Origin: Clostridia bacterium
GTDB lineage: Bacteria > Bacillota > Clostridia > Oscillospirales > CAG-382
Direction of reading: 5' to 3'
Assembly: GCA_017560145.1 (NCBI GenBank)
Contig: JAFYON010000024.1
Coordinates: 1-38,143, forward strand
DNA: 38,143 bases
Under the pieces are notes generated by a model. That model saw only the letters and a program-made list of their open reading frames with translations. It had not been told where the DNA came from and did not search any database. A program made the translations under genes and the position numbers. Shown here in pieces: positions 2,973-20,789 of this stretch. Each line of letters starts with the position of its first letter. The first letter of the stretch is position 1.

Positions 2973-3004
2973 ACAGTAAAAATCAGGTAAATTCGGGAGT
3001 TAAT

Positions 3005-6000: not shown

Positions 6001-9000
6001 GCTGTTTTTGCCTCTTTACCGCGATTCGTTTTTATATGAATCGCTTGCCTTTGCACTTGCGGTGCAGAGGGGAGAAAACAAAATATTCGGAGTAAGCGAA
6101 AGCGGATTTTATTCCTTCGACAGCGAAATGCGATATCAATATAAGGCAAACGGCTTGCAGACGCTTGCGCTTCGCCGTATCGGAGAAAACGAAAAAACGA
6201 TATCGCCCTATTCGACCTATCTTTCGCTTTGTATATGCTCGACTGCGGCAATCAAAAATCTGCACGAGCTTGAAAACCGCGGAATGTACGGCAGATACGG
6301 GCTTTACGAGGCGCTTGATTTTAATGTCGATCAAGGCGGCGCTTGCGTTAAAAGCTATATGGCGCACCATATCGGGATGAGTATTATTGCAATAATGAAC
6401 GCGGTTAAGGACAATATTTTCGTGCGGCGCTTTACCTCGGATATAAAAATGGCGTCTGCGCACGAGCTTTTGCAGGAAAAGATCCCGACCGATGCGCACG
6501 TTTTCGAGGACGATGCCCGACGCGAGCGCGAGATAAAGCGGCCGAGCGCCGCCGTTAAAAGCATATCGACTTTGCCCGATCTTACTTCGCCGAGCTCGGT
6601 TTTGCTTTCAAAGGGAGATATGACGGCGATAGTGACCTCGAGCGGACACGTTGCGATAAGCTGCGGAGAGCGTGCGATAACAAACACGGTGTTCGATCCC
6701 GATTCGCTTCGGTTTTCTCTCGGAGTAACGCTGTCGCGCTCGGGCAAGGCGTTCGGATGCGCTCCGCTTTACGGAAAAGAGGGAAAGAGCTTTGAAATAA
6801 AGGGAGATTCGGTTTCTCATATTGCATCGTGCAGAGATTTTTCGGGCAGAGTGCAATATGCAATGTCAAAAAGCGGCGGTTGTATGATAATCAGCACTCG
6901 CGCCGAGGCGTTGAAAAGCTACGACGTAACGCTTTCGTTCGAGCCTGTGCTTGAAGCAAGCAAGAAATTTTTATCGCATATCTCTTTTTCACGTCTTTTT
7001 ATCGAAAGCGAATACGATGCGCAAAGACGCATTCTTTATTTTCACCGAAGAAGCGGCGAGGACGGTCGGCATATTTTTACACTCGCCGTTGCGCCCGAAG
7101 ACAAAAGAAATTCATTTTCATTTTTAACAAGCCGCGAATCCCTGTGCGCCGCCTCGATCACCTCTCCGCTTGATTACGCATTTGTTCCTACCGACAACGC
7201 CGTCGGCGCTTGCATCGATCCGCTTTGCCTTGTGCGGTCGGCATCGGCAGAGGGCGGAAGGGCTTCGTTTATTATTGCATGCGGACAGACCAAGCGCGAA
7301 TGCGAGCGTAATATCGGGCTTGCGCGTGCGGACAAGACGTTTGCACCGATAAAGCATCAAAGTCAGGCCGAGTCCTCGCTTCTAACGGCGTTGCTTTACA
7401 ACAAGGGCGACGCGGTTGTCGAGGAGTTCCCGAAATGCTCTGTCAACGACCTTTGGGCAAACGGTATCTCGGGTGATTTTCGCTTTGCGGTCGTTTGCGC
7501 TTCGGAAATTGCAAAAAAGCGCATTTCCTCGATCCTTAACGCCTATTTGTCGCTTGCAAATTCAATGATAAGATGCGAGCTGATATTTATCGTTTGCGAA
7601 TCGGACGGATATAACCGCCCCGTTGAAAGGTCGGTCTATGAATCCTGCGAGAGGGCAAACGCCGTGCAATATATCGGCAAAAAGGGCGGAATTTTCATTC
7701 TGCGCAAGGATAATATAAGCGACGGGCTTTTGACCGCGCTGAAATCCCACGCGAGCTTTTATTACGATCTTTCCCGCCCTCTGCCGAGGATAAAGCTTGC
7801 AGGTCGGTTTGATATCGGCAACACGGTCACGTTGCCGCAAAACGCGGCAAGGCTTTCGCCTCCCGAGTACTCGATCGCTTCGGGCAACGGCTATTTTGAA
7901 AATCAAGCTTATATTGTCGATAAAAGCTCGCTTCCCAAAGCACCCTATTCCTTCGTGCTGACGGGAAGACGCTTTTCGACCGTAGTAACGCAATCGTCGC
8001 TCGGCTATACCTTTTACGATAACGCGCGCGAGCGAAGGCTTTGCTCCTTTTACGGCGACCCGCGCTCGCTCGATCGAGGCGAAACGGTATTTATGCTGTC
8101 AAACGGAAAAAGATATGACCTCTGCGCGGCTTCGTCACGGGTGGCATACGAAAAGGGAAGGGCGGTTTATTACGGCGCGGCGGACGGGATAAATTACGCT
8201 CTTACGGTGTGCGTCGACCCGAAATATCCCGTCAAGCTGATTCGAGTTCAATATCCAAAGGGCGTTTCGGCAGAAACCCACTTCGTCATCGAGCCGGTTA
8301 TGGGCGATTCGGTCGGGCAGAGCGGAAATATATCGTTAATGCGCTTTTCGTCTGGCAATAATTCGGCAATGCTGTTTCGCAATATATTCGGTATGACCTT
8401 CCCCGAGGGCGTTGGGTTTGCAGGGGTCTGCGGCGGAGAATTAAGGATAGAGGAAAAAACGCTTGCTTCAAATTCGGGCGACGTAATATTCTTCCTCGGC
8501 GCCGCAACGAGCGAATCGGGGGCAAAGAAAATCGCCTCGATCATAAACCGCAAATTTTTCGAATCCTCGCTTCACAACGCAAGCCTCTTTGCCGAATCGA
8601 TGATACCGAAAATAAAAATATCAACGCGCAGTAAAACGACCGACGCGCTTATGAACTTCTTTATGCCCTATCAGGTTGCGGCTTGCCGAATGTATGCGCG
8701 CGGCTCGTTTTATCAAAGCGGCGGAGCTTACGGCTTCCGCGATCAGCTTCAGGATTGCCTTACTCTGATCTATTCAAGCCGCGAGCTTGTGCGGAACCAC
8801 ATCCTTCGCTGCTGTGCACATCAATATTACGAGGGCGACGTTATGCATTGGTGGCACACGCGAAATATAAACCGCGTTAACAACGGGGTGCGAAGCAGAT
8901 GCTCGGACGATTTGCTTTATCTTCCGCTCGTTGTTGCAGATTATATCGAAAAGACGGGCGATCACTCTCTGCTCGATATCGGTGTGAAATATCTTTCCTC

Positions 9001-10075
9001 GCCGCCCTTGGGCAAGAGGAACGAAAGGTATGAGCTTCCGAACCGTACCGACGTTAAGGAAAGCGTTTATCTTCATTGTCTGCGCGCACTGTCGCGTGCA
9101 GACCGTGTCGGCGCTCACGGGCTTATTCTTATGGGCTCGTGCGATTGGAACGACGTCTTTTCGTTGGTTGGCGAAAAGGGCGTGGGAGAAAGCGTTTTTT
9201 CGACCTTGCTTTTTATCATCGTTGCCGAAAGGTTTATTCCCATAGCCGAATCGCGCAACAACAGAGCAACCGCAGACCGTTACCGCGAAAGGGTAAGGGC
9301 GCTTCGCAAAGCGGTTGAGGATAACGCCTTTTTCGGCGACAGATATGCACGCGCCTTTTGCGACGACGGCAGAATTTTGGGTGTCGAGGGGTGCAAGGAA
9401 TGTGAGATCGACATTCTTTCTCAGGCGTTTGCCGCGTTGGCAGGGCTCGACGGAGGTCGGGTAAGGCTTGCCTTGAAAACCGCGTTTTCCAAGCTTTACG
9501 ATCGCAAAAACAAAATATTCAGGCTCTTTTATCCGCCCTTTGTAAACGGCAAGGCGCGTGTGGGATATATACGCGGATACGTTGCCGGCATACGCGAAAA
9601 CGGCGGTCAGTATACCCACGGCGCGCTTTGGGGCGCACTCGGATTTCTTGCCGTCGGTATGACCGAGGAGGCGTTGGCGGTGCTTGAATGTGCAAACCCT
9701 GCCGCAAGATGCACCGACAAGGAGCTTGCGAGCCGCTATAAGACCGAGCCTTATGCCGTCGCCGCAGATATTTATTCGGGCGATCATTCGGGCAGAGGCG
9801 GTTGGAGCTGGTATACGGGTGCGGCATCATGGCTTTACCGCATTATGCTCGAGCGGGTTCTCGGTTTGAAATTCGGCGCAGACGGCGTCTTGCTTTCGGC
9901 AACGCCGATAATTCCCTTTAACGCCCAAATTTCGTTGTGCGATGCAAGGCTTAATATCATCGCATCGGAGGACGTGACGTCGCCCACTCTCGACGGCGAA
10001 AATATAACCTTTCCGCTAAAGCTAAACGGCGGCGAGCACACTGTTTGTCTGCCGATATACAAAAGAAGCGAATAA
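3005..10075 (+). CDS. Cyclic beta-1,2-glucan synthase-like protein (Cgs/NdvB: GT84 + glucoamylase-like transglycosylase + GH94 phosphorylase)
   Basis: GT84 motifs GWERKRG, TLDSDT, LSHDVLEG, RHHRWMRGD with TM segments. Middle domain LPPDN..RTSPTNVG..SWSGTAFEY..MAHHIGMS. GH94 motifs YQSGGAYGFRDQLQD, DWND, RENGGQYTHG, GRGGWSWYTG. ATG 3005 follows GGGAG. Confidence 0.9.
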   Translation: MQNGMITRLKKSYRSVKKRLDETRVSDWIYDNFYLIDRRYRALMKNKRALSHRRIFDLLFSCCEDCDFSPSPKGIAARITNENREFGFFELESIRELLCACAIIKIGEALESNSGTDMIPNAVRLLNSVSDPEYSDILPSVWLPEKIISEFEPNYESFSAETKSRYRLAVADIARANRESESQTAKRLTEKAKGEGCLLGNLLFVPDKKYILLWLTGAALVFALLFALSLFLVGWVTCLLVIPFGIASGAVADILVSRVMPNTSAPRIELNSVPDDAKTLVTVAALLTGGKGDERVFESLVRFRYMNPDANIYFCLLADLPDAETPYMPRDNEIIGNAFRRIDEMNRLHGERFCIFFRERVFNKSESSYGGWERKRGAVCELVSHIVNGDKREYRGGDFIRDIKYILTLDSDTNLSVGSVKELLSVALHPLNRPQSVDGRVVSGYGIIQPSVRTELKSAYKSAFSRLISGSGGADVYSGASFSRRQSLLGCGTFCGKGLIDVSLFEALVCKNFPEGLILSHDVLEGNVLRTLAATDITLTDSTPANPVSYFRRHHRWMRGDFQNLVFLFSKRFGFASKFGLLAVAIRHLSPIGSFAAILFCCFEKNTNGLALLLLACSEFLLPFAISCITVFFSAAPFACVRFFSKACSSLSQNALRVFFETASLCRRAILALDALILASIRLCTRRKTLEWTTAAQTERLSSTLGKYVLDGTGSVIFGIFLLVFASPSFIKLVGLLFFAYPLAAVVLSRNIGGGGIARPSFTKQQKELLISHATDMIGFYYDNVNDRTNHLPPDNIQLSPVGDIALRTSPTNVGFYLVSLLAARDLGIIGSNELCDRLSASLDTVEKLEKYNGNLYNWYSLTDLCVIGDRYVSSVDSGNFVVMLVALKEGLREYSQENEGISRLIARVEALIENTDLTVFYDSRRELFCIGIRGDGKRDLCFYDMLMSEARMTAYYAVAASIVPKRHWQTLGRTLTHKSGYIGMKSWSGTAFEYFMPQLFLPLYRDSFLYESLAFALAVQRGENKIFGVSESGFYSFDSEMRYQYKANGLQTLALRRIGENEKTISPYSTYLSLCICSTAAIKNLHELENRGMYGRYGLYEALDFNVDQGGACVKSYMAHHIGMSIIAIMNAVKDNIFVRRFTSDIKMASAHELLQEKIPTDAHVFEDDARREREIKRPSAAVKSISTLPDLTSPSSVLLSKGDMTAIVTSSGHVAISCGERAITNTVFDPDSLRFSLGVTLSRSGKAFGCAPLYGKEGKSFEIKGDSVSHIASCRDFSGRVQYAMSKSGGCMIISTRAEALKSYDVTLSFEPVLEASKKFLSHISFSRLFIESEYDAQRRILYFHRRSGEDGRHIFTLAVAPEDKRNSFSFLTSRESLCAASITSPLDYAFVPTDNAVGACIDPLCLVRSASAEGGRASFIIACGQTKRECERNIGLARADKTFAPIKHQSQAESSLLTALLYNKGDAVVEEFPKCSVNDLWANGISGDFRFAVVCASEIAKKRISSILNAYLSLANSMIRCELIFIVCESDGYNRPVERSVYESCERANAVQYIGKKGGIFILRKDNISDGLLTALKSHASFYYDLSRPLPRIKLAGRFDIGNTVTLPQNAARLSPPEYSIASGNGYFENQAYIVDKSSLPKAPYSFVLTGRRFSTVVTQSSLGYTFYDNARERRLCSFYGDPRSLDRGETVFMLSNGKRYDLCAASSRVAYEKGRAVYYGAADGINYALTVCVDPKYPVKLIRVQYPKGVSAETHFVIEPVMGDSVGQSGNISLMRFSSGNNSAMLFRNIFGMTFPEGVGFAGVCGGELRIEEKTLASNSGDVIFFLGAATSESGAKKIASIINRKFFESSLHNASLFAESMIPKIKISTRSKTTDALMNFFMPYQVAACRMYARGSFYQSGGAYGFRDQLQDCLTLIYSSRELVRNHILRCCAHQYYEGDVMHWWHTRNINRVNNGVRSRCSDDLLYLPLVVADYIEKTGDHSLLDIGVKYLSSPPLGKRNERYELPNRTDVKESVYLHCLRALSRADRVGAHGLILMGSCDWNDVFSLVGEKGVGESVFSTLLFIIVAERFIPIAESRNNRATADRYRERVRALRKAVEDNAFFGDRYARAFCDDGRILGVEGCKECEIDILSQAFAALAGLDGGRVRLALKTAFSKLYDRKNKIFRLFYPPFVNGKARVGYIRGYVAGIRENGGQYTHGALWGALGFLAVGMTEEALAVLECANPAARCTDKELASRYKTEPYAVAADIYSGDHSGRGGWSWYTGAASWLYRIMLERVLGLKFGADGVLLSATPIIPFNAQISLCDARLNIIASEDVTSPTLDGENITFPLKLNGGEHTVCLPIYKRSE

Positions 10076-10139: not shown

Positions 10140-10457
10140 TTAAGATTCTTTTTTGATATCGTATTTTCCGTTGCTTATATTTTCCTGCTCGCTTACCGAA
10201 ATAAACGCGAAAATATAGGACGAAAGAAGAATGCCAAGGTAAAAAAGCACGTATTTAAAAATCATATTTGCCGAAAATGACGAAAGTCCGCGCTCGATCA
10301 TCAGCGCAAAAAGAATCAACGCGATCATCAAAAGAACCGTCTTGAATAAATATAAGAACCGCATTCTCTTTTTGATAGTCAAAACGATCCACGCGACAAA
10401 ACAAACCAGGTTTACACCCGGTATGAATCTTAACACACGCTGAAGCTTAATAGACAT
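10140..10457 (-). CDS. Small hypothetical membrane protein (about 3 TM)
   Basis: 105 aa with three hydrophobic stretches, RBS GAGGTG, and an upstream TTGACT-17-TAAAGT promoter (10543-10571). Confidence 0.7.
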   Translation of the reverse strand: MSIKLQRVLRFIPGVNLVCFVAWIVLTIKKRMRFLYLFKTVLLMIALILFALMIERGLSSFSANMIFKYVLFYLGILLSSYIFAFISVSEQENISNGKYDIKKES

Positions 10458-10774: not shown

Positions 10775-10863
10775 GCAGAGGTATCGAAGCGGTCATAACG
10801 GGGCTGACTCGAAATCAGTTTGTGGGAAACCACACGAGGGTTCGAATCCCTCCCTCTGCGCCA
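10775..10863 (+). tRNA. tRNA-Ser(CGA)
   Basis: Acceptor GCAGAGG/CCTCTGC, discriminator G, encoded CCA, anticodon arm GCTGA-CTCGAAA-TCAGT, long variable arm (GTGGGAAACCAC), T arm GAGGG-TTCGAAT-CCCTC. Confidence 0.96.
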
Positions 10864-10866
10864 AAA
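10808..10866 (+). repeat. att site, tRNA-proximal copy of the 59-bp direct repeat
   Basis: CTCGAAATCAGTTTGTGGGAAACCACACGAGGGTTCGAATCCCTCCCTCTGCGCCAAAA matches 20731-20789 with one mismatch (A10817 vs G20740). Confidence 0.93.
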
Positions 10867-10900
10867 ACCCTTGAAAACACTACGTTTTCAAGGGTTTTTT
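10863..10900 (+). terminator. Element-supplied terminator for the tRNA
   Basis: AAAAACCCTTGAAAAC-actac-GTTTTCAAGGGTTTTTT hairpin with a T tract. Confidence 0.85.
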
Positions 10901-10949
10901 CTTTTTATTTCGGTCATGAACGATAGTTTTTTGACACATCAAAAATCAA

Positions 10950-11196
10950 TTCTAAAATTAGAACCTCACATCCGAAACCCCTTGCGGCACAAGCGATTTC
11001 GGTTTTTTTAATTAAGCAATCATGCCAAATCTATTAGAACTTCACCTAATTCAAAAAATTTTATTATTCGGTCATAACTCAATCTCCAAAAAACATATCG
11101 TTACTTTGGAAGTTCTAACAGCGAAAACCCTTGAAATCTCTGACTTTTTCGGAATTTAAGTTCTAATAAAATCAGCAATTCTAACAACATTTCTAA
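10950..11196. repeat. TTCTAA/TTAGAA repeat cluster (candidate integrase arm-type sites)
   Basis: TTCTAA at 10950, 11113, 11161, 11179 and 11191; TTAGAAC[C/T]TCAC at 10958 and 11034. Confidence 0.6.
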
Positions 11197-11756
11197 TCTG
11201 ATTTTTCTTCATTTGTGGTCTTCAAAAACTCACCCGCAAGCTTTCTAAACTCAGGAGTGATTTGAACCCTTGATAACATTTCCTTCGAAGAACAAAACTC
11301 TATAAAGCTCATCTTAACCAACACAAACCGTCGACCCATCTTTATGTATTGTATTTTTCCTTTATTACATAACTCACTCAATCGTTGTCGAGGCAAACCG
11401 GTCAATTCTGACACTCTGCGTATATATAAGGCATCAGGTTCATTCTTCCATCTATCAGTTAGAAATTCTCTGAATTTTATAATGTTAGCGTCTGACGGCT
11501 CTATTGACACCTTTGGCGGTATCCTGCCGAATTTACCTTTTAACGCAAGCGTTATATCGGTTTGTTCTAAAAGCTTCTTTAGTTTTCGCGCATGCTTCTT
11601 TTCGATTTTGTATCTATGTGTTTTCTTACCCGTGTCTATCGCAGGTATATATCTGTTTTCTAATAGGTATCTCATCTTTTTCTTTGAAACATGCAGATAT
11701 TTTGCCAATTCCTCGCCGCTAAAATATGCTTTATTTGTTTTTCTTTTTTTCTTCAT
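11193..11756 (-). CDS. Tandem helix-turn-helix (excisionase/MerR-like) DNA-binding protein
   Basis: Two winged-HTH-like units (FSGEELAKYLHVSKKKMRYLLENRYIPAI; LYIRRVSELTGLPRQRLSELCNKGKIQYIKMGRRF). Very basic. ATGA overlap with the integrase stop. Confidence 0.75.
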   Translation of the reverse strand: MKKKRKTNKAYFSGEELAKYLHVSKKKMRYLLENRYIPAIDTGKKTHRYKIEKKHARKLKKLLEQTDITLALKGKFGRIPPKVSIEPSDANIIKFREFLTDRWKNEPDALYIRRVSELTGLPRQRLSELCNKGKIQYIKMGRRFVLVKMSFIEFCSSKEMLSRVQITPEFRKLAGEFLKTTNEEKSD

Positions 11757-12298
11757 ATCTTTCCCTCGAAAACAGCAGTAATTACATCACTAACATTTTT
11801 TATACTTTTCATGTCAAGATGCGAATAAATATTCGCCGTGGTTGATATATCCGAATGTCCAAGAAAATTAGATACGTTTATTAAAGGCACCTGATTATTT
11901 ATAAGTATGCTCGCAAAGGTATGGCGCAAATCGTGAAAACGAATATGTCGCATTCCGTGCTTTTTCAATAGCGTGGCAAAATGACCTGTTACGTAGGATG
12001 GTTTTAAGAGCTCGCCTAATTGATTTACACATACGTAATCCTTAAAGTCTGTCGAATATCCGCTTTTGAACATAGCACGATATAAATCCTGCTTTTCTTT
12101 TTCGTTCTTCAACATATCGATTACCATAGGCGGCATATAGAGTTTTCTTCTGCTGGATTCGGTTTTCATTTCTTCAACAGCAGATAAAGCCTTTTTGCCT
12201 TGTTCATCAAATTCGGCAATTTTAGTGTCCAAGATAATTGAGTTATCTTCCCAATTAATCCTCGACCACCTCACACCTAACACCTCGCTTCTTCTTAA
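11753..12298 (-). pseudogene. 5'-truncated tyrosine recombinase/integrase (catalytic half only)
   Basis: Frame reads LRRSEVLGVRW...K...HIRFHDLRHTFAS...LGHSDISTTANIYSH. An in-frame TAA lies five codons upstream of LRRSE, and no N-terminal binding domains are present. Confidence 0.88.
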
Positions 12299-12328
12299 CG
12301 AATTACGAAGTTAGTATACAACATTTCG

Positions 12329-12368
12329 AAGGCCCAAACTTCCCCAAGGGGTGAGTTTGGGCCTTTTT
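12329..12368 (+). terminator. Orphan intrinsic terminator next to the integrase truncation point
   Basis: AAGGCCCAAACT...AGTTTGGGCCTT 12-bp stem followed by Ts, with no plus-strand gene upstream. Confidence 0.7.
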
Positions 12369-12667
12369 ACATTGTCGAATAAGCGGAGAGTAGAAAACAA
12401 AAGAAACCGCGCAAAAACGCAATAAACAAGTCGCGCATACAACACCTTAATGTAAAAAATAAGCAATATTTCCAAAAAAGTTTTAAAAGATTAATAGACA
12501 AACCGGCAAGTAACGACATGTATATAATGAAAGGTCAAAAATGTCAAAATATGCTTGAAAAACGAAAAAACAAAAATTCGACAACTAAAAGGAGGGGTGT
12601 AAAAAATATGCGGTAAAATTAAAAAGTTTTTTGAGATTTGAAGAAACAACAACGGAGGAAATTTACA

Positions 12668-15600
12668 ATGAAAAGAATCAAAACAACTCTCTCTTTTATT
12701 CTTAGCTTCGTGATGCTTCTTTGTTTCTTGCCTAATTCGGTTTTGGCGCAGATTGGAGAAGTGTTCACAAGCGAGGAAAACGGCGCTTTAACCGAATTGC
12801 CCGGTTCGGATACCGAGGTATACGTGCTCGGTGAAGTGACCGAAAACCGTACCGAAACCTCAAAGACCTTCCGTATGTCCGACGGCAGCTATGTTGCCGC
12901 AGATTACGGCAAACCTATTCACTTCGAAGACGAAAATGGTATATGGCAGGATTATGACAACACACTTGCCTTTACAGATACAGTTGCCTATGACACAGAT
13001 GATTTCGCCGGATTTATAAATACGGATTCGTATATATCCGTTAAGCTTGCGAATAATTCGAACGCGAACAATCTGTTAAAGATACAAAAAGATGATTACA
13101 AAATAAGCCTTCACCTTGTCGGAGCAAACAAGAGCAAAGCACTGGAGTTGCATCGCAATCAAGCCGAACCGACAAGCAGGGATATCGATTCGGTATCTGA
13201 ATTGACTCATTTTTCTTCCGGTGCAATATACAGAGATATTCTTCCCGATACCGACCTGGAGTATATTATCTACGGCAATTCGGTAAAGGAAAATATTATC
13301 GTCAAGGAAAAGGGCGATTCCTATGTATATAACTTCGAATTGAAGCTGAACGGACTTGTTCCCGCGCTTCGAAGCGACGGTTCCATCGCCCTGAACGATG
13401 AAGACACCGAAAAAACCGTGCTCGTAATCCCTAAGGGATATATGTACGATGCAAACGGTGAACGCTCCACCGATGTGAATTATTCAATCGTTTTCAAGAA
13501 CGGAAACAAATACACACTTACCGTTACCGCAGACGCAGAATGGATAAACGCCGATGAAAGAGCCTTTCCCGTTACGGTAGACCCGACGGTTAAAGGCTTT
13601 GAAAACGGAGCAGATACCGTTGACGCACCCATTTTCGAGGCTGACCCCACGTATAACGGATACGTCGACCACAGAACGTATGCAGGAATCGATTCGGATT
13701 ACGAACGCCAAACGCTTATTATGGCGGAAAGCCTTCCTGTGTTGCCGAAATCTGCGGTGATACTTAACGCCGTTTTGAATATAAAGCAGGAAAGCGTAAC
13801 CAACGGCGGTGCAACCGTTGCCGCAAGGAAAATCACAAGCACTTGGAGCTCATCGACTGTTAATTGGAACAACAAGCCGACGAGTGATACCGAAATACTT
13901 GACTACAAAACGCTTACCTCGGTTGAAAACGGAACTATCGTAAGCTGGGACGTAACGCGTGCGGCACAAGGCTGGTATTCGGGCAGTGTTAACTACGGCA
14001 TTCTTCTTTCCGCATACGACGACACCTTGACGGGATACGTAAGATTCTATTCGTCTGACTCGTCAAACAAGCCCGTGCTTCTCATTACCTATATGGACAC
14101 CAAGGGTATTGAAGGAATTTGGACCTATTCGACACAAGGCGGAGGAAGTGCCGGAACGGGATACGTGAACGGATTTAACGGCAATCTCGTGCTCGCACAC
14201 GGCGATATAACGACAAAGGGAGGAATACTTCCCATATCCGTTAGCCACGTATATAACAGTTTCCTTTCGGGAATGGAATTCACGTCAAACGGTTCCGATG
14301 TCAACGCGCCCATAACCGCATCGTACACAAATATGAAAATGGGCAAGGGCTTCAAGCTCAGTCTGCAAGAGACGCTCGTAAGCAAAGATATTGACGGAAC
14401 AGACTATTTCGTGTATAATGACGGTGACGGAACCGAGCATTATTATTACTTGGACGAAACGTTGAACAAATATATTGCCGAATCGGGCAATGGATTTGAA
14501 TTAACGGTCGGATCGAACGGAAACACGAAATACACAATAACCGACGAGCTCGGCAACAAAAAGTATTTTAATACCAACGGTTACGTTACAAGGATATTGG
14601 ACGTCCACGGCAATAAAAAGGAATTTGTATATAACTCCTCGAACCAACTCACGTCAGTTACCTCAACGACCAACGGTCAAACTACCGAAACACAATTAAC
14701 CCTTACCTATAACGCAAATGGCGCACTTTCGCGCATAACCGACGGATACGATACGAATAAATATATAGCATACTATTATTCAAGCGCCGTATCGGGCTCG
14801 TATTCGGCCGGATATTCGGGCTATCTTCGCAAGATTGAATATTTCAACGACGGTCAATCGCTCGGCTACAGCTTGTATAATTACAACGCCAACGGCTTGC
14901 TGACCGATACCTATGACAGCGTAACAGGATATAAGCTTAACTATACCTATACCGCTTATAACGGCAACCAAAGAGTTGCATCGGTAACCGAATCGGTAAA
15001 CGACACCAACGGTCAAACTGTCGGCTTTGAGTATGGCGATAAAACCTTCACCGTCCGCACAAGCGGCAAAGACGACGCATACGGCACAAGCGACGACCTT
15101 TTGACGACTTACGTGTTCGACGACCACGGCAAGGCAACAAGCGCTTACAGCACAGACATTCAGGGCAACGAGGTGTTCGGCGCTTCTTATGCCGAGTTTT
15201 ACCCAACCGACCCCGGCAATGAGAAAAACAACAAAATTAAAACAAGTGCCGTAAAAGGCATTACACATCAAAACTATTTCGTTGACGGCAATCTGGAAAC
15301 CGCATCGGGCTGGTCGAAGGATACGCTTAACGGCGGAAGCGCAACGTATACAAGCGAAAGCACCCTGTTCGGCAACAAGGCGATGAAGCTTGCCACAACT
15401 GATGCCGAAGGACATGCGATGTACTTTCGCTTCTTCAACATCCCCGAACCGGGCACCTACACCCTTTCGGCGTACGTCAAAACCGTTAACGTAACAGGCG
15501 ACGGCGGCTTGTCGGTCAACCTCGACGGCACCTCGAGCGAAACCTTAAGAGGCACGACCAACACGGCGATAAACAACGGCTGGCGCAGAATAAGCATAAC

Positions 15601-18600
15601 AAAAATGTTTGCATCCGCAGGCAGCTATAGCGTCGACGCCCGCTTGGAAGATGCAAGCGGTACCGCTTATATCGATTGCATCCAGCTCGAAAAGAGCGAA
15701 ACCCCTTCGGACTTCAACTTTGTCGATAACGGCGGCTTTGAGGCTATACGTAAATGGTCGGGAAGCTATACGCTCGTAAGCGGTAAAATAGGCTCCTACG
15801 GCGCAAAGCTTAATGGCAACCCCACTGCGCAAAACCGTTTAAGCCAGACAATACCCGTTAACGCTCCGCTTAATACGACGTTTATGCTCTCGGGCTGGGC
15901 AAAGGCAAACTCGGTCGACGTTTCGAAAGATGACCGAAAATTCGGCTTGCTCGCAACCCTTAATTATTCCGACGGCACGTCGAACGAGCAATACGTGTCC
16001 TTCAACGCGGATAACGTTAATTGGCAGTATGCAACGCTCGCAATCGTACCCAACCCCGATAATACTGCCGCAACGGTCGACAGTATAACTATTTCTGTCT
16101 GCTACGATCACAACGCAAATACCGCAATCTTTGACGATATCGCCCTTACTGTCGAGCCTTCGCAAACCTACGTCTATGACGACGAGGGCAATATTGAATC
16201 CGCCAAGGATGCAGAAGGCAACGAAAGTCTTCTCGAATACGTCAACGACGTTGACCTCGAAAGCTATACCGCACCCACCAACGAAAAATACGATTATTCC
16301 TACGTTGACGGTACCCACGATGTAAAGAGTGTAACAAGAACCTCAGGCGATATAACTCAAACGCTCGATTACGGCTATGATAGCTTCGGTCACGTTACCT
16401 CAACCGTTCTTTCGGCTTCCGGCACGAACGATAAAATAACCTCGTCGGCGACCTATACCGAAGACGGCAACTATCTCGCGTCCTCGACCAACCAGCTCGG
16501 CAAGGTAACGAATTATAACTACGATACCGTTACCAAACTGTTAAAATACGTCGAAAACGCAAATTCGGTAAGAACAGCGTATGTTTACGATGAATTTGAA
16601 CACACCGAAAAGGTATATCTCGATTCCGATGAGGATGGCATTGCCGATACAGCAGAAGCTCAGGTATCCTACCTCTACGCAAGCGGACGTCTTTCGGGTA
16701 TCGATACCAAAACGACCGATTATTCCCTTACCTACGATGCTTTCGGCAATATTCTTACAATAAAAGCAGGAAATAACACGCTTGCAACGTATGAATATGC
16801 CGCAAACAACGGTAAGCTATTAAAGCTCACCTACGGTAACGGCGATTACGAGGAATATATCTACGATTCACTCGACCGCCTTGTCAGTGTGAAGTTCAAC
16901 GGCACCGTTGAATATACTTTAATATACGATGCAAACGGCAGATTGTATTCAATGACCGAGGGAACAACCACCCACGTATATGAATACGATTCGCTTGACC
17001 GTTTGATTAGAGCATACCAAAAGGACGAAAACGGCATTATTGTCGCGGTTGAGAATACCTATGACGAGCTCGGTCGCGCAAAGGGTTCGTCTTACGCAAT
17101 TGGCGATAAAACGATGGAATATTCGGTAACTTACAAGACCGATTCAAACCTTGTTTCTTCGCTTAGTATGCCCGATGCAAGCGAAGGTTCGCAAATGTCT
17201 TGCATAGATTATACCTACGATAACTTCGACCGTTTGACCGAAAAGGTAATCTCTATGTCCTCGATGGTCGATTTGTCCGAGGAATATTCGTATTATAACT
17301 ATACGGGCGCAGACGGAAAAAGGCATACAACCTCACTTGTATCGTCAATTGCACTCAGAAGCACCAACGATAGCGGATATAACGTCTTATATACTTACAC
17401 ATACGATAACTTGGGCAATATAACCGACGTTTGTATAGAAGGCATCCCTATAGAGCATTACGAGTATGATGCTCTCGGTCAGTTGATTCGTGCGGATAGT
17501 TTAGAAGCAAACAGCACTGTATTATACCAATACGACAAAGCGGGTAATATTCGTTATACGTCTGTAATGCCGTATACGTCGGCACCGTCGGCAAATATAG
17601 CGTTTGCCGAAGGCTCGATATTGTCCTATGGTTATTCCACTTCCTCTTGGGGCGATTTGCTTACGTCCTATGGCGGAACGTCTATTTCCTACGACGCAAT
17701 AGGTAATCCGACCAATTGGATGAATGCAAACAACCTTACTTGGGAAGCAAGAGAGCTTCAGTCCCTAAGCGTAACCGGCGGTCCTTCCGTTTCGTTTGAG
17801 TATAATTTCGACGGTATTCGCACCAAAAAGACCGTTGGCGGTTCTGTAATCCATAACTATACTCTTGACGGCACGAAGATAATAAGAGAAACGGTTACAA
17901 ACAACGGTGCTGCTTTCTATGATTTCTATTACCTCTATGATGAATCCGGTTCGGTAATTGGCTTTATCTATAACAATAACTACTACTATTACCAAAAGAA
18001 CCTACAAGGTGACGTAATACGAATCCTTAATTATAGTGGTAATGTCGTTGTTGAATACACCTTCGATGCTTGGGGTAAGGTTCTTTCGGTTAGCGGTTCT
18101 CTTGCAAGCACGATAGGACAATACAACCCGTTCAGATATAGGTCGTATTACTACGATACCGAAACAGGATTCTATTACCTGCAAAGCAGATATTACGACC
18201 CCGTTGTAGGACGATTTCTCAATGCGGACCACCCCGAATTAGTCGGAGCAAACGGAGGAATACAAGGATATAACTTATTTGCATATTGTAATAATAATCC
18301 TGCAAATTGCGAAGATTCTCTTGGCGGTTTTTTAGAATGGATAAAAAATAAGATAAAATCTTATGTGAAAAATGTTGCCAAACCAGCATTAGATATGCTA
18401 CAAGAAAATCTTAAGAACAAAGAATTCACATATTCTAGCGGTGTAAATTTGAGTGGTTCTCCAAGCGTATCCAGCTTCAATTGCCAAATTGGCTTTGCTA
18501 TGGATTCGAATGGAGATGTAGCTGTTCAAACTACATTTGGCGGCGGATTCACCACGGGCTCTCCAGGAGCGTCCATTACAGCGTATCAAACGGTTACTAA

Positions 18601-18880
18601 TGCGCCAAATATTGATAAACTAAATGGCGGCAGTTATCAAATTGGTGGTTCGGCTGGGGCTATAATATATGGTGTTCCTGTTTCAGCGGGTGGCGATTTG
18701 AATATTATTCCTGACAAAGACTTGGATAACACATATTATGGTGTTACAACAAATGTTGGTTTTGGAACTCCAGGTGCTGAATTTCATGTTGAATGGAGTG
18801 AAACAACAACTCAGAACCATACGCGTTTCAATGTATTTGAAGCGGCCAAACGTGTTTATTCATGGATTATGGAGTGGTAA
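12668..18880 (+). CDS. Secreted WapA-like RHS/YD-repeat polymorphic toxin with DNRLRE-like and two CBM4/9-like domains
   Basis: RBS GGAGG at 12654 and signal peptide MKRIKTTLSFILSFVMLLCFLPNSVLA. DNRLRE-like domain at about 13610-14095 (..WNNKP..WDVT..NYGILL..FYSSD..KPVLLITY). Two N.V.NG.[LF]E...W...[ID]D domains at about 15270-16160. Many YxYD repeats. RHS core YNPFRYRSYYYDTETGFYYLQSRYYDPVVGRFLNAD...NLFAYCNNNPANCEDSLG, then a 184-aa variable tip. Confidence 0.93.
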   Translation: MKRIKTTLSFILSFVMLLCFLPNSVLAQIGEVFTSEENGALTELPGSDTEVYVLGEVTENRTETSKTFRMSDGSYVAADYGKPIHFEDENGIWQDYDNTLAFTDTVAYDTDDFAGFINTDSYISVKLANNSNANNLLKIQKDDYKISLHLVGANKSKALELHRNQAEPTSRDIDSVSELTHFSSGAIYRDILPDTDLEYIIYGNSVKENIIVKEKGDSYVYNFELKLNGLVPALRSDGSIALNDEDTEKTVLVIPKGYMYDANGERSTDVNYSIVFKNGNKYTLTVTADAEWINADERAFPVTVDPTVKGFENGADTVDAPIFEADPTYNGYVDHRTYAGIDSDYERQTLIMAESLPVLPKSAVILNAVLNIKQESVTNGGATVAARKITSTWSSSTVNWNNKPTSDTEILDYKTLTSVENGTIVSWDVTRAAQGWYSGSVNYGILLSAYDDTLTGYVRFYSSDSSNKPVLLITYMDTKGIEGIWTYSTQGGGSAGTGYVNGFNGNLVLAHGDITTKGGILPISVSHVYNSFLSGMEFTSNGSDVNAPITASYTNMKMGKGFKLSLQETLVSKDIDGTDYFVYNDGDGTEHYYYLDETLNKYIAESGNGFELTVGSNGNTKYTITDELGNKKYFNTNGYVTRILDVHGNKKEFVYNSSNQLTSVTSTTNGQTTETQLTLTYNANGALSRITDGYDTNKYIAYYYSSAVSGSYSAGYSGYLRKIEYFNDGQSLGYSLYNYNANGLLTDTYDSVTGYKLNYTYTAYNGNQRVASVTESVNDTNGQTVGFEYGDKTFTVRTSGKDDAYGTSDDLLTTYVFDDHGKATSAYSTDIQGNEVFGASYAEFYPTDPGNEKNNKIKTSAVKGITHQNYFVDGNLETASGWSKDTLNGGSATYTSESTLFGNKAMKLATTDAEGHAMYFRFFNIPEPGTYTLSAYVKTVNVTGDGGLSVNLDGTSSETLRGTTNTAINNGWRRISITKMFASAGSYSVDARLEDASGTAYIDCIQLEKSETPSDFNFVDNGGFEAIRKWSGSYTLVSGKIGSYGAKLNGNPTAQNRLSQTIPVNAPLNTTFMLSGWAKANSVDVSKDDRKFGLLATLNYSDGTSNEQYVSFNADNVNWQYATLAIVPNPDNTAATVDSITISVCYDHNANTAIFDDIALTVEPSQTYVYDDEGNIESAKDAEGNESLLEYVNDVDLESYTAPTNEKYDYSYVDGTHDVKSVTRTSGDITQTLDYGYDSFGHVTSTVLSASGTNDKITSSATYTEDGNYLASSTNQLGKVTNYNYDTVTKLLKYVENANSVRTAYVYDEFEHTEKVYLDSDEDGIADTAEAQVSYLYASGRLSGIDTKTTDYSLTYDAFGNILTIKAGNNTLATYEYAANNGKLLKLTYGNGDYEEYIYDSLDRLVSVKFNGTVEYTLIYDANGRLYSMTEGTTTHVYEYDSLDRLIRAYQKDENGIIVAVENTYDELGRAKGSSYAIGDKTMEYSVTYKTDSNLVSSLSMPDASEGSQMSCIDYTYDNFDRLTEKVISMSSMVDLSEEYSYYNYTGADGKRHTTSLVSSIALRSTNDSGYNVLYTYTYDNLGNITDVCIEGIPIEHYEYDALGQLIRADSLEANSTVLYQYDKAGNIRYTSVMPYTSAPSANIAFAEGSILSYGYSTSSWGDLLTSYGGTSISYDAIGNPTNWMNANNLTWEARELQSLSVTGGPSVSFEYNFDGIRTKKTVGGSVIHNYTLDGTKIIRETVTNNGAAFYDFYYLYDESGSVIGFIYNNNYYYYQKNLQGDVIRILNYSGNVVVEYTFDAWGKVLSVSGSLASTIGQYNPFRYRSYYYDTETGFYYLQSRYYDPVVGRFLNADHPELVGANGGIQGYNLFAYCNNNPANCEDSLGGFLEWIKNKIKSYVKNVAKPALDMLQENLKNKEFTYSSGVNLSGSPSVSSFNCQIGFAMDSNGDVAVQTTFGGGFTTGSPGASITAYQTVTNAPNIDKLNGGSYQIGGSAGAIIYGVPVSAGGDLNIIPDKDLDNTYYGVTTNVGFGTPGAEFHVEWSETTTQNHTRFNVFEAAKRVYSWIMEW

Positions 18881-18881
18881 T

Positions 18882-19598
18882 ATGAGAAACAAGATAATGT
18901 GTCTTTTATTGGTATGTGCTTCGTTGTTTGCTATTTTCATATTGAATTCAAATGCTATAGAAACTGAGTTCGATTTTTTGCCACTTGATGAAAATGAGAA
19001 AAAAACTTTTTTGTCAAATGTTTCCTTCTCTGAGGTTGCGCATAGCGAATCCAAGAACCCTATTGAAAGCTTCGATGTTAATAATAATGGTATAGTAGCT
19101 ATTGTACATAGCAACTACAATGATAAAGCAATAACCTTTTTAAACGGCGATGGATTAGTTTTGGGCAGATTGGAATTTAGTAGCGATGGAGATGTTGGCG
19201 TAAAATGGGAAGATGACGATAACTTGTTGGTTTATTTCGTTCGAAGTGATGTAATTGCAACGGTATCACAAAAAGGCGAAATTCTGGAATTGCACAAGAT
19301 AACCACATCGTCAGAAAAATATTATGAGTGGAGAGAGCAGTTTCGTTTCACTACAAAAGAAATAAATGAAGTTAAATATTCGCTCAAAAATGATTTTGGC
19401 TTTTTCAATATGTTCGCATCCTCATATTCACAGTTAATCTTAACTTCTTCGGACGGCAATGAGCAAAAACTTTATGATGCAAGTTCGTTATATTTAGAAC
19501 GTGTTGTGGTTGGTTTCGTCGCGGTATGTTTCTTTATAATAATAGTGACGTTTGTTGTAATCAGATTATTTATTACTAGCAAAAATAAAGAGACATAA
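18882..19598 (+). CDS. Putative cognate immunity protein: signal peptide, extracellular beta-rich domain, C-terminal TM anchor
   Basis: ATG one base after the RHS stop, with GGAG RBS inside the RHS 3' end. N-terminus MRNKIMCLLLVCASLFAIFILNSNA; C-terminus VVVGFVAVCFFIIIVTFVVIRLF then KNK. AT-rich like the RHS tip. The immunity role is inferred from position. Confidence 0.75.
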   Translation: MRNKIMCLLLVCASLFAIFILNSNAIETEFDFLPLDENEKKTFLSNVSFSEVAHSESKNPIESFDVNNNGIVAIVHSNYNDKAITFLNGDGLVLGRLEFSSDGDVGVKWEDDDNLLVYFVRSDVIATVSQKGEILELHKITTSSEKYYEWREQFRFTTKEINEVKYSLKNDFGFFNMFASSYSQLILTSSDGNEQKLYDASSLYLERVVVGFVAVCFFIIIVTFVVIRLFITSKNKET

Positions 19599-19644
19599 TG
19601 GATTGCTTTGACATCTGTGTTTGAAATTTTAATAATCAAGACAC

Positions 19645-19684
19645 AAAAGACCGAGGAGTGTAAATTTTCACTCCTCGGCCTTTT
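19645..19684. terminator. Terminator after the toxin/immunity pair
   Basis: AAAAGACCGAGGAGTG-taaatttt-CACTCCTCGGCCTTTT. Confidence 0.85.
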
Positions 19685-19866
19685 CGCTATAATCACAACT
19701 TATTCCAAAGCAAATATCCTTTTCTTGAATCGTTTAAAACACTCGCCGTATGCGAATAATATTCTTTGACGCTCTCTGTTAGTCTCTTCGGCCCTTTTAG
19801 CCTTATTCCTTTGTCGTCGGTAAAGGACGTTAGCCAAAACGAAGGAAAAATACATGTTTTTGATAA

Positions 19867-19910
19867 GAAAAAAAGAGCCCCCCTTGTTCTTAACAACAAG
19901 GAGGGCTTTC
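19867..19910 (-). terminator. Terminator-like hairpin
   Basis: AGAGCCCCCTTGTT-cttaac-AACAAGGAGGGCTTT preceded by an A7 run, which is a U tract on the minus strand. Confidence 0.65.
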
Positions 19911-20079
19911 TCAATAGAAACTCATAATCTTCTTAACTTAATGACATTGGGGTGAAACTTCACCTCTGTTTTTAATATCACCAATATGTCGAAAAGATAG
20001 AAATCCTAGAAGCGATAAAATCTTCATAAGTTAGGGGTCTGGTGATAGAATAAAACAAATACTAAAAGGAGATAAAAAC

Positions 20080-20376
20080 ATGAAAAAGATTTTGTTAATA
20101 AGTTTGAGTATACTGCTTTCTTTTTTGATGGCGGTGTACGCTATTCCGGCGGTTACATTAGCCGAGGTTTTTGGTACCGATGTGTCGGATATCGGAGAAA
20201 TATCTGACATCGAGTCAGATGGTGGAGGTGACGCAAATATAGTAGTGCCGCCGGAAGACGATGTGGTCGTAGAGAGCGAGATCATAACAAAGAGAACATC
20301 AAATTCAAAAACATATAAGCTTTCAGATGGCTCGTACAAAACTGTAATATACGGCGCAGATATTATTCACATTTGA
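20080..20376 (+). pseudogene. N-terminal relic of a second secreted RHS/DNRLRE-type protein
   Basis: AAGGAG RBS and signal peptide, then EIITKRTSNSKTYKLSDGSYKTVIYGADIIH, which aligns with EVTENRTETSKTFRMSDGSYVAADYGKPIH of the full RHS protein. Stops immediately after. Confidence 0.75.
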
Positions 20377-20534
20377 AAATGAAAGCAAAGATGACTTGGA
20401 CAGAAAAATTAAATTTCTAAAAGACTATTGTTCTACAATTGACATTGTTAAATACTAATCCTTTCAACAGATGGTTTTATATCTCTACGAACTAGATTTT
20501 CATGGATATCCATTTTAGTATAATATGTGGCATC

Positions 20535-20564
20535 ATCTAATAAAAATCTAATATTTATCTAATA
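20535..20564 (+). repeat. Three ATCTAATA direct repeats with 11-bp period (candidate arm-type sites)
   Basis: Copies at 20535, 20546 and 20557. TCTAATAAAATC also occurs at the other island end (11162). Confidence 0.65.
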
Positions 20565-20730
20565 AAATCGTGAATAATCCGAGCAATTTCAAAAAATATG
20601 ATGTCGCAATGTTTTTGAGGATTTTCCATCTGCAAAATCGGGAAACCTCTTGAAAACACTTGATTTTTATGATAAAGTAAAACATACTAAATGCGGCCAA
20701 AATCAACTAATTTCAAGCGTTAGACGTCCG

Positions 20731-20789
20731 CTCGAAATCGGTTTGTGGGAAACCACACGAGGGTTCGAATCCCTCCCTCTGCGCCAAAA
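20731..20789 (+). repeat. att site, distal copy (displaced 3' half of tRNA-Ser)
   Basis: Begins exactly at the anticodon loop CTCGAAA and lacks the 5' half of the tRNA. Confidence 0.93.

Follow-up and report, generated by a model that had tools for sequence, protein, structure and literature searches.

What does the C-terminal tip of an RHS protein do when it resembles no enzyme, and why would the gene behind it encode a protein predicted to be anchored in the producer's own membrane and to face outward? The question is raised by two adjoining genes in a window of 38,143 nucleotides (the whole stretch of DNA that was analysed) from a Clostridia bacterium (assembly GCA_017560145.1). A first-pass annotation had singled the pair out as a candidate for an undescribed toxin/immunity family.

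The RHS carrier, its tip and the downstream partner

The RHS gene (Table 1) opens with a TTG, but the ATG at 12668, which gives a protein beginning MKRIKTT..., is likely its true start, and a Sec-type signal peptide is predicted at the N-terminus. The protein has the organization of an RHS/YD polymorphic toxin and includes carbohydrate-binding-like domains: an RHS_repeat match in Pfam (E 4e-18), a DNRLRE domain (residues 335-484), a spike-fibre/CBM-like domain (residues 879-1024) and YD repeats in NCBIfam, then the core, and from residue 1897 the tip. The core terminates in ...NNPANCEDSLGG, a variant form of the pre-tip PxxxxDPxG motif, and relatives carry ...NNPVxxxDPxG at the equivalent position. 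As the first-pass annotation had described it, the tip is exactly 184 aa long and AT-rich, with a GC content of 0.36-0.44 next to 0.45-0.56 for the RHS body and 0.30-0.37 for the partner gene.

No Pfam or NCBIfam model matches the tip at E <= 1, which agrees with the earlier remark that it has no nuclease, deaminase or ADP-ribosyltransferase motif. Its profile retrieved nothing meaningful from PDB sequences (best E 0.006, phosphomannomutase), the ESM Atlas returned only clusters without names (at 0.90), and PADLOC gave zero matches on the locus. Judged by its sequence matches, the tip is a member of a large family that has no Pfam or NCBIfam name: of 428 representatives found at E <= 1e-3 (clustered at 50% identity), 225 match at E <= 1e-10, and the match is C-terminal without exception, on carriers that are mostly RHS proteins. 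RHS families lie upstream of the tip in 24 of 40 scanned relatives, and in none of the 40 does any family cover the tip itself.

For the partner we rejected the start at 18738 offered by the open reading frame list (18738..19598), which overlaps the RHS gene, in favor of the ATG at 18882, which is preceded by GGAG. The placement of this Shine-Dalgarno-like sequence inside codons of the tip suggests that translation of the partner is coupled to that of the RHS gene, and a ATGGAGTGG-stop-2 nt-ATG junction also occurs in 13 of 20 further loci that were examined. Hydropathy agrees with the signal peptide and C-terminal anchor first proposed for this gene, with a hydrophobic N-terminus at residues ~1-27 and a single, strong C-terminal hydrophobic segment at ~200-235 (peak Kyte-Doolittle 3.25), and the alignment shows that this architecture is kept in relatives. 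The ectodomain between them is predicted to face outward from the cell. The partner family comprises 97 clusters at 90% identity, every one unnamed. DUF5711 (PF18975) was considered and rejected, with a score of 22.8 bits where the cut-off is 26.3 and a match of any kind in only 2 of 19 family members. Searches of PDB sequences with the partner profile gave weak matches to WD40/NHL propeller fragments only (E 0.07-3), and the nearest named cluster in the ESM Atlas is NHL, at 0.76; taken with the sub-cut-off DUF5711 match, these leads raise the possibility that the ectodomain may be propeller-like.

The operon ends in a terminator-like hairpin and, from its flanking repeats, is carried on a 9.9-kb tRNA-Ser island of this gut Clostridia bacterium, in which the HTH_17 and integrase-family genes are read as mobility remnants.

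Table 1. Features of the tip-partner operon and the island that carries it
Feature	Position	Strand	Basis or remark
Left copy of 59-nt direct repeat	10808..10866	+	3' part of tRNA-Ser (10775-10863); left end of island
HTH_17 (excisionase-like) gene	11193-11756	-	
Short phage-integrase-family gene, 176 aa	11753-12283	-	
RHS/YD-repeat polymorphic toxin gene	12638..18880	+	ORF and translation; 2080 aa counted from TTG
RHS repeat-associated core, residues 1810-1896	18065..18325	+	NCBIfam Rhs_assc_core TIGR03696, E 4.7e-18
Candidate toxin tip, RHS protein residues 1897-2080, 184 aa	18326..18877	+	starts directly after Rhs_assc_core
Predicted N-terminal amphipathic helix, tip residues 2-30	18329-18415	+	AF2 model
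Predicted eight-stranded Vap-fold barrel, tip residues 35-169	18428-18832	+	AF2 model
Predicted C-terminal helix, tip residues 170-183	18833-18874	+	AF2 model
Shine-Dalgarno-like GGAG	18871..18874	+	within last codons of tip (ATG GAG TGG), 7 nt upstream of partner ATG
Immunity candidate (partner), 238 aa	18882..19598	+	start ATG 18882, one base past TAA 18878-18880
Partner layout: signal peptide ~1-25, predicted outward-facing domain ~26-204 (~180 aa), short basic tail			hydropathy
Partner C-terminal TM anchor, residues ~205-230	19494-19571	+	hydropathy
Terminator-like hairpin, T-rich tail	19651..19678	+	closes two-gene operon
Right copy of 59-nt repeat	20731..20789	+	58/59 identical; right end of island

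Tip and partner across genomes

Related loci were gathered with a 14-row tip alignment. A partner homologue lies directly after the tip in 20 of the 23 loci by phmmer and in 22 by profile; the first-pass annotation had called for a check of co-occurrence, and its description of a polymorphic-toxin tip and a coupled partner is borne out by these counts. Among 401 sampled genomes of the order, the tip profile matched 49, but its first ~45 positions correspond to the end of the RHS core, and the full barrel is present in just 7 genomes; the partner is adjacent in all 7, and 8 of the 401 have a partner without a tip. The open frame that holds the tip extends upstream by 263 aa or less in 11 of the 23 loci, with the locus end not reached, and on this sequence evidence many tip copies are short orphan cassettes. 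The locus family thus displays the orphan tip-immunity cassettes and immunity-only genomes of RHS/YD systems, together with a conserved candidate immunity gene immediately downstream (1-nt gap). A full-length pair is present in the cultured isolate Yeguia hominis NSJ-40 (locus L003).

Of the two proteins the partner evolves faster, with a mean identity of 38% versus 57% for the tip. Their divergences are correlated (r 0.79, 16 pairs), which reflects inheritance of the cassette as a unit and provides no separate evidence of binding. Because both proteins have numerous conserved relatives, their pattern goes beyond chance. Moreover, since a position after the RHS core, orphan cassettes, partner-only genomes and a faster-evolving partner are hallmarks of toxin/immunity pairs, we regard tip and partner as such a pair, in which the partner is probably the immunity factor.

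Other genes follow some of the relatives. In locus L025 a tip homologue precedes a 120-aa protein with no hydrophobic segment. The more distant tips of L031, L033-L035 and L038-L040 are followed by membrane proteins other than the partner family: small ones with two hydrophobic segments in L033, L034, L035, L038 and L039, and a split SP/TM pair in L031. None of nine alternative downstream proteins reached a Pfam gathering score; one gave a 16-bit match to a viral glycoprotein model (cut-off 28.5), and a bacterial PH domain was dropped as an assignment for these proteins because Pfam had no match at gathering score.

Predicted fold of the tip

With 106 relatives in the alignment, AF2 modeled the tip with a pLDDT of 97.8 and a pTM of 0.87, versus a pLDDT of 41.7 from the single sequence, as a helix, an eight-stranded barrel and a second helix. 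The alternating Gly/Ser/Thr-rich strands noted on first reading are real, and G+S+T makes up 35% of the barrel part family-wide, but they number eight rather than about ten, each 11-20 residues long. The cationic amphipathic helix was likewise recognized correctly: it begins FLEWIKNK..., has a net charge of +3 and reaches a hydrophobic moment of 0.56, a value attained in 1.6% of shuffles. It is net positive in 47% of 90 family members, over a slice that takes in insertion columns.

The top matches in the fold search were all four solved entries of the Vaps, the virulence-associated proteins of Rhodococcus (Prescottella) equi. VapD (4csb) superposes with Z 13.1 and rmsd 2.4 over 111 of 113 residues, followed by VapB (7b1z, Z 12.4; 4cv7, Z 11.5) and VapG (5aeo, Z 11.2), with an overall range of rmsd 2.4-3.5 and 104-111 residues superposed; Foldseek assigned the Vap chains a probability of 0.99-1.00. 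The fold check proposed in the first-pass annotation gave a confident model and match, with no characterized toxin domain matched by sequence in Pfam or NCBIfam. The best non-Vap match was OprF (Z 7.6), and the second tier consisted of eight-stranded outer-membrane barrels (Z 6-7.6). Whereas the Vaps align with residues 32-166 of the model, the meander barrels cover 33-149 and miss the last strand. The near-complete sequential alignment with the Vaps implies a strand order of b1-b2-b3-b8-b5-b6-b7-b4, in which b4 and b8 are transposed, and the tip is thus predicted to be a closed Vap-type barrel with crossing connections, unlike an OMP-like or beta-PFT-like meander. The suggestion that it might be a beta-type pore former is not borne out by this model. 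The last strand is GAEFHVEWSETT; it is not Gly-rich, it places Trp157 on the hydrophobic face, and the extra helix comes after it.

In all eight strands one face is hydrophobic yet variable (mean 1.51 bits), and the opposite face, which carries 12 of the 17 near-invariant positions, is strongly conserved (2.73 bits); G/S/T/N/Q/A make up 71% of it and charged residues about 10%. The core of VapD is hydrophobic, and its conserved "bald" surface, rich in glycine, binds detergent (PMC4118825); by likeness to VapD we infer that the conserved polar face of the tip is the outer face of the barrel. Most of the conserved motifs (DTKGN, TNAP, NIIPD and GTPG) fall at turns and strand ends. Near-invariant His154, with Glu152 and Glu156 alongside, may together with conserved Asp60 and Asn92 point to an enzyme or metal site.

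The structural likeness has no counterpart in sequence searches. The Vap model PF05526 (R_equi_Vir) did not match the tip at E <= 1, nor at E <= 10 when the genome was searched in six frames. The tip profile scored probabilities of 0.8-1.3% against six Vaps in hhalign, and the barrel halves gave nothing against each other or against Vap halves (probability <= 1.3%). Because a relation is not detectable at the sequence level, and because a shared fold does not show function, the argument for a Vap-like activity is one from fold only. On the model, then, the fold is not new, the Vap fold having already been solved; the claim to a new toxin/immunity family is supported in that neither the tip nor the partner family has a name or model in Pfam or NCBIfam, and "hypothetical protein" is the only name in the sources.

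Possible modes of action and comparison with known systems

VapA permeabilizes membranes, collapsing proton gradients and releasing dye from liposomes, and phosphatidic acid stimulates its liposome binding, although how the membranes become permeable is disputed and VapB is only weakly active (PMC10100859). By analogy, the best reading of the pair, for which we would put the chances at about even, is that a Sec-secreted polymorphic toxin disturbs the cytoplasmic membrane of its target from outside and that an immunity protein displayed on the cell surface blocks it. The two genes would form a polymorphic toxin and immunity cassette whose RHS shell carries the tip to a neighboring Gram-positive cell. 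The tip would stay outside the cytoplasm and work on the external side of the cytoplasmic membrane, where it would cause a leak of protons or small ions, much as VapA does in host membranes, through its conserved, uncharged surface rich in Gly, Ser, Thr and Asn. The producer and its kin would be spared because the partner ectodomain captures the tip on the surface of the cell. The first-pass proposal of a toxin that acts at the outer face of the membrane is supported.

The same outward-facing partner would also be expected if the tip hit another extracytoplasmic target, binding or degrading an envelope lipid or wall precursor (lipid II, undecaprenyl carriers or teichoic-acid intermediates, for example) and leaving the membrane tight. 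TipC guards against the wall-zone lipid II phosphatase TelC by the same logic (PMC6193138), and amphiphile binding by the bald surface of VapD and the effect of phosphatidic acid on VapA fit as well (PMC4118825, PMC10100859), as do the conserved polar Asp60, Asn92 and His154 and the E-x-H-x-E strand. We nevertheless consider this unlikely: the tip has no enzyme-family match in Pfam, NCBIfam or PDB sequences, the location of most conserved motifs fits a structural role, and VapD is described as having no cavity (PMC4118825). If the tip were to insert as a transmembrane beta-barrel, singly or in an oligomer, it would turn the variable hydrophobic face to the lipid and line a narrow lumen with the conserved Gly/Ser/Thr/Asn face. 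This division of faces is the pattern of membrane barrels, and the strand lengths and the second rank of outer-membrane barrels in the fold search agree with it, but the clear lead of the Vaps, which cover all eight strands, argues against it. So do the hydropathy of the tip, whose Kyte-Doolittle mean over 19 residues peaks at 1.23, and the Vap topology itself, in which crossing connections cap the barrel and the hydrophobic core is packed (PMC4118825), and we judge insertion quite improbable.

An RHS/WapA-type carrier with a Sec leader could instead deliver a tip with a cytoplasmic target, as for the WapA tRNase tips, and the partner would then catch the toxin at the surface before import. 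The small protein without hydrophobic segments in L025 would suit such an arrangement, which we hold to be very unlikely given that Pfam and NCBIfam gave no signature of a nuclease, a deaminase, an ADP-ribosyltransferase or any other enzyme, that the membrane-anchored partner family is present in 22 of the 23 loci and the examined distant tips precede other membrane proteins, and that Vap-fold proteins are described only as extracytoplasmic and membrane-active (PMC10100859, PMC4118825). Finally, toxic activity of the tip is a prediction only and no bacterial killing by Vap proteins is known, so the tip could be a structural or adhesive end-piece with the partner as its receptor or assembly factor; in view of the four hallmarks listed above, this strikes us as far-fetched.

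Under the preferred reading of an outside-acting membrane toxin, the two families represent a toxin domain worth naming and a candidate immunity family, widespread in gut and rumen Clostridia. The Vap fold is, to our knowledge, so far an orphan fold, seen only on the virulence plasmid of an animal pathogen and with a disputed mechanism. Here it is placed in a telling genetic context, as a candidate toxin with an outward-facing antidote, and the idea of membrane permeabilization therefore becomes testable in simple bacterial assays; the pair in Y. hominis NSJ-40 makes such experiments possible. A bolder proposal, which we offer tentatively and with well under even confidence, is that the Vap fold is an old interbacterial weapon: gut Clostridia would arm RHS shells with this self-contained beta-barrel module, which would abolish the membrane potential of neighbors from outside. 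Surface-displayed immunity proteins of a new class, which may be partial beta-propellers, would neutralize it. In that case the Vaps of R. equi would descend from such toxins, or be convergent relatives of them, turned on phagosome membranes.

The R. equi Vaps (VapA/B/D/G, PF05526) share with the tip a barrel that, as predicted, superposes along almost all of their length, a conserved, uncharged surface face rich in Gly, and export (predicted for the tip). Beyond the undetectable sequence relation, the tip differs in having an RHS carrier, two flanking helices absent from Vaps and a dedicated partner gene, in missing the Gly-rich ...GGGxGxW end, and in its presumed target, which is another bacterium rather than the phagosome. 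We found no paper joining Vap proteins to Rhs, polymorphic toxins or interbacterial competition; "Vap" and "Rhodococcus" are absent from the first 300,000 characters of the 2012 polymorphic-toxin survey, and "Vap" from the main text of PMC9424270.

With WapA/WapI and other Gram-positive, Sec-dependent RHS toxins the locus shares a signal peptide, a YD/RHS shell, a core, a variable tip and a downstream immunity-type gene, as well as orphan cassettes in relatives. Characterized WapA tips are cytoplasmic tRNases, and their immunity proteins are small and cytoplasmic. The pair described here is not of that type, with no nuclease match in the tip and a partner predicted to be membrane-anchored and outward-facing. 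The first-pass annotation had taken WapA/WapI as the known state of the art, which is too narrow, since TelC/TipC (PMC6193138) and the pore-forming RHS tip Tse5 (PMC9637101) were already published. TelC of Streptococcus intermedius acts in the wall zone, and its immunity protein is membrane-anchored with the inhibitory domain outside (PMC6193138), an arrangement paralleled by the extracellular site we propose for the tip and by its partner. However, TelC is a T7SS-exported (LXG/T7SS) lipid II phosphatase of another fold, unlike an RHS/Sec carrier, and TipC has an N-terminal TM anchor where the partner has a leader and a C-terminal anchor; no family in Pfam or NCBIfam ties tip or partner to either.

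Closest in proposed effect are Tse5-CT (RHS), the CDI ionophores and EsxX/TspA/TelE, which kill by dissipating the membrane potential and whose immunity factors are membrane proteins (PMC9637101, PMC11630599, PMC12744356). Like the candidate described here, all of these are polymorphic toxin tips with membrane-protein partners. Tse5-CT, the CDI ionophores, TspA and TelE are helical membrane-inserting toxins. The tip does not belong with them or with the glycine-zipper toxins, having no hydrophobic helix, as its low maximal hydropathy shows, and being predicted to form an all-beta closed barrel between amphipathic helices. It would thus join the membrane-targeting polymorphic toxins, which include EsxX with its glycine-zipper motif (PMC12744356), as an all-beta, non-enzymatic candidate.

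The RHS-partner operon and its surroundings

The two-gene unit described in the first-pass annotation, an RHS protein whose last 184 residues (1897-2080) form the tip and a downstream gene for a candidate immunity protein (the partner), was confirmed by ORF calling, domain scans and hydropathy. Translation from an internal Met of the RHS ORF at 12668 gives a product beginning MKRIKTTLSFILSFVMLLCFLPNSVLAQ, and from this sequence we infer a Sec-type leader. In the partner, a hydrophobic leader is followed by a single strong hydrophobic segment at the C-terminal end, and the highest Kyte-Doolittle window mean in the tip is 1.23, leaving it without a hydrophobic helix. The small ORFs at the edges of the island encode 98 aa (right) and 105 aa (left), and both lack a match in Pfam or PADLOC. 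The 2385-aa protein encoded to the left has a domain layout that, we presume, resembles that of cyclic beta-1,2-glucan synthases.

Features of the operon, the island and neighboring genes
Feature	Position	Strand	Remarks
2385-aa protein	2918-10075	+	GH94 catalytic and supersandwich domains, glucoamylase-like region; weak glycosyltransferase-2 similarity
Small ORF	10140-10457	-	just left of tRNA-Ser gene
Low-GC genomic island, 9.9 kb	10775-20789, including tRNA-Ser		bears RHS-partner operon; bounded by direct repeat
tRNA-Ser(CGA)	10775-10863		adjoins island
59-nt direct repeat	10808-10866 and 20731-20789		3' part of tRNA-Ser; 58/59 identical
HTH_17 gene	on island		family scan
Integrase-family gene	on island		short, 176 aa; family scan
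RHS protein ORF	12638-18880	+	2080 aa; ORF calling and translation
DNRLRE domain	RHS residues 335-484		family scans (Pfam, NCBIfam)
Spike-fibre/carbohydrate-binding-like domain	RHS residues 879-1024		family scans
RHS/YD repeats	within RHS protein		family scans
RHS repeat-associated core	RHS residues 1810-1896		family scans
Tip	18326-18877	+	remaining 184 residues after RHS core
GGAG	18871-18874		within last tip codons, seven bases 5' of partner ATG
RHS stop codon TAA	18878-18880	+
Partner gene	18882-19598	+	238 aa; start ATG at 18882
Terminator-like hairpin	19651-19678		3' of partner gene
Small ORF	20080-20376	+	just inside right repeat

The tip family and its pairing with the partner

No Pfam or NCBIfam model matched the tip at E <= 1, and HMMER, run exhaustively over 1.84 billion representatives, returned 428 relatives at E <= 1e-3 (225 with E <= 1e-10, 48 with E <= 1e-30). 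The match was C-terminal in 150 of 150 relatives among the matches listed. When 40 relatives were scanned against Pfam, 23 carried RHS_repeat and one more only PF03527, with no family over the tip portion in any of them. The tip profile matched 64 clusters in a 5.8-billion-sequence collection, among which no name went beyond "hypothetical protein" and the only Pfam families were PF05593, PF25023 and, on one 134-aa entry, PF01018. Judged by sequence, the tip belongs to a large, as yet unnamed family found at RHS ends, the near-invariant positions being T35, G39, D60, G63, N64, Q68, T91, N92, A93, L99, G107, Y137, G139, G145, H154, T160 and N169 (tip numbering).

A single-sequence, word-indexed search with the partner found one relative only; a profile of 19 sequences found 97 clusters, about 190-275 aa long except for two (349 and 353 aa), none with a name or Pfam family. 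Pairing was assessed from the gene directly downstream of the tip in 23 loci of GTDB genomes encoding tip relatives, counts that are not fully independent because L006/L024 and L018/L019 are near-duplicates. A partner homologue detectable by phmmer lay directly 3' of the tip in 20 of the 23, and a profile HMM added L017 (truncated, without the anchor) and L023, giving 22. The lone exception, L025, has at this place a 120-aa protein that lacks hydrophobic segments. That locus encodes a Lachnospiraceae RHS protein (L025:23-4824; tip homologue E 3.6e-39) and has a second, weaker tip match farther downstream, beside a protein with three hydrophobic segments. Of 20 other loci examined, 13 have the same ATGGAGTGG-stop-2 nt-ATG junction as the RHS-partner operon.

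Of 401 genomes sampled evenly from the same order, 15 contained the partner, eight of them the partner alone; the full barrel was found in seven (G000, G341, G353, G130, G028, G246, G305), and by coordinates the tip adjoins the partner in all seven. In G305 (G305:C34:49970-51275, minus strand) the tip is broken into three frame pieces next to an intact partner gene (E 9e-104), which looks like a decaying toxin whose immunity gene has been retained. Across 16 pairs, identity between tips correlates with identity between partners (r 0.79, reached by 0 of 5000 permutations), the partner being the more diverged (mean identity 38% versus 57% for the tip). Truncated tip matches (L005, L021, L022), near-duplicates (L019, L024), divergent partners (L017, L023) and the partnerless L025 were left out. 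This co-variation shows co-inheritance as a cassette and is not proof of binding.

Two further observations concern these loci. The cultured isolate Yeguia hominis NSJ-40 (L003, NZ_JACRSN010000007.1) encodes both a partner and a 56% identical tip; the RHS frame bearing this tip is long, staying open for at least 1333 aa upstream. The isolate might serve as an experimental host. Downstream of the partner in L004, L008, L012, L013, L014 and L024 lie more RHS C-terminal fragments with other tips, several of which bear hydrophobic segments. Small membrane proteins come after these fragments, and the whole resembles arrays of orphan cassettes.

More distant tips have other neighbors. A phylum-wide sample of 401 genomes held a tip match in four others; downstream of it lies the partner family in one and, in two, a protein of ~200 aa with two hydrophobic segments. 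Proteins of 148-166 aa, again with two hydrophobic segments, follow the distant tips of L033, L034 and L035, and a split SP/TM pair follows that of L031. The tips of L033, L034, L035, L038 and L039 match the barrel HMM at E 1e-9 to 1e-13, and their unnamed downstream proteins (148-201 aa) are not of the partner family. Pfam assigned the two-segment proteins to no family at gathering score, and they seem to form a second class of candidate membrane-bound immunity proteins.

A predicted Vap fold

With 106 relatives aligned, AlphaFold2 modeled the tip at a mean pLDDT of 97.8 and pTM of 0.87; without an alignment, pLDDT was only 41.7. In the model, helices at 2-30 and 170-183 flank eight strands that lie between 35 and 169, and the count of about ten strands in the first-pass annotation is its sole observation in need of correction. 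Foldseek against the PDB returned the Rhodococcus equi virulence-associated proteins (Vaps) VapB, VapG and VapD at probability 0.99-1.00. VIA-align, run without Foldseek on 48,161 chains, matched VapB 4cv7 (Z 11.5, rmsd 3.5, 109/111 residues aligned) and VapG 5aeo (Z 11.2, rmsd 2.6, 104/110), the best non-Vap match being the OprF barrel at Z 7.5. A re-check of the top Foldseek chains gave Z 13.1 for VapD 4csb (rmsd 2.4, 111/113) and 12.4 for VapB 7b1z (rmsd 2.6, 108/109). In the published Vap topology, strands 4 and 8 have exchanged places compared with a meander barrel (PMC4118825). The aligned span of the model is 33-149 for outer-membrane meander barrels versus 32-166, including the last strand, for Vaps, which fits Vap topology and would imply its strand order. 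PF05526, the Vap family, matched the tip neither in a Pfam scan nor in a six-frame search of the genome at E <= 10. The tip profile met a profile of the six aligned Vaps of pVAPA1037 at an hhalign probability of 0.8%, and at most 1.3% when either was cut into halves. The link to Vaps is one of predicted fold only and not of sequence-level family membership.

All eight strands have one hydrophobic face, whose 52 positions average 1.4 on the Kyte-Doolittle scale, with a mean information of 1.51 bits. The opposite face is dominated by small, polar residues (G/S/T/N/Q/A make up 71%, charged residues about 10%), has 2.73 bits and carries 12 of the 17 near-invariant positions. This two-face pattern would also suit a barrel inserted in lipid around a polar lumen, which is a rival reading. 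By analogy, we favor the conserved polar face as the outer, functional surface, since VapD is reported to have a strikingly hydrophobic core and a surface where invariant glycines make a "bald", detergent-binding patch adjoining an Asn/Gln hydrogen-bond cluster (PMC4118825).

Proposed action and relation to known systems

The evidence assembled here comprises an RHS carrier with a putative leader, a predicted Vap-fold tip and a conserved, membrane-anchored partner whose predicted orientation is outward, together with orphan cassettes and partner-only genomes. In the reading that we favor, the tip would act on the target's cytoplasmic membrane from its outer face and render that membrane leaky, and the partner ectodomain would sequester the tip. 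The leak is drawn by analogy with VapA, which permeabilizes membranes, collapsing proton gradients and releasing carboxyfluorescein from liposomes, an activity reported to be weaker in VapB and VapN (PMC10100859).

Both the kind of system, RHS toxin plus immunity, and the Vap fold are already known. The partner family is new, as would be a Vap fold serving as a polymorphic toxin tip; our literature searches turned up no paper connecting Vaps with toxins of the Rhs, polymorphic or interbacterial kind. The predicted all-beta, apparently non-enzymatic make-up of a candidate membrane toxin is new as well. The membrane-depolarizing polymorphic toxins cited below, EsxX aside, are generally known as helical and membrane-inserting. 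The tip has no hydrophobic helix. Membrane-depolarizing toxins on record include one RHS tip, Tse5 (PMC9637101, PMC11630599, PMC12744356), and EsxX is described as a glycine-zipper toxin (PMC12744356). For outward-facing immunity as proposed for the partner, a precedent is reported in TipC, which faces outward and blocks the wall-zone toxin TelC (PMC6193138).
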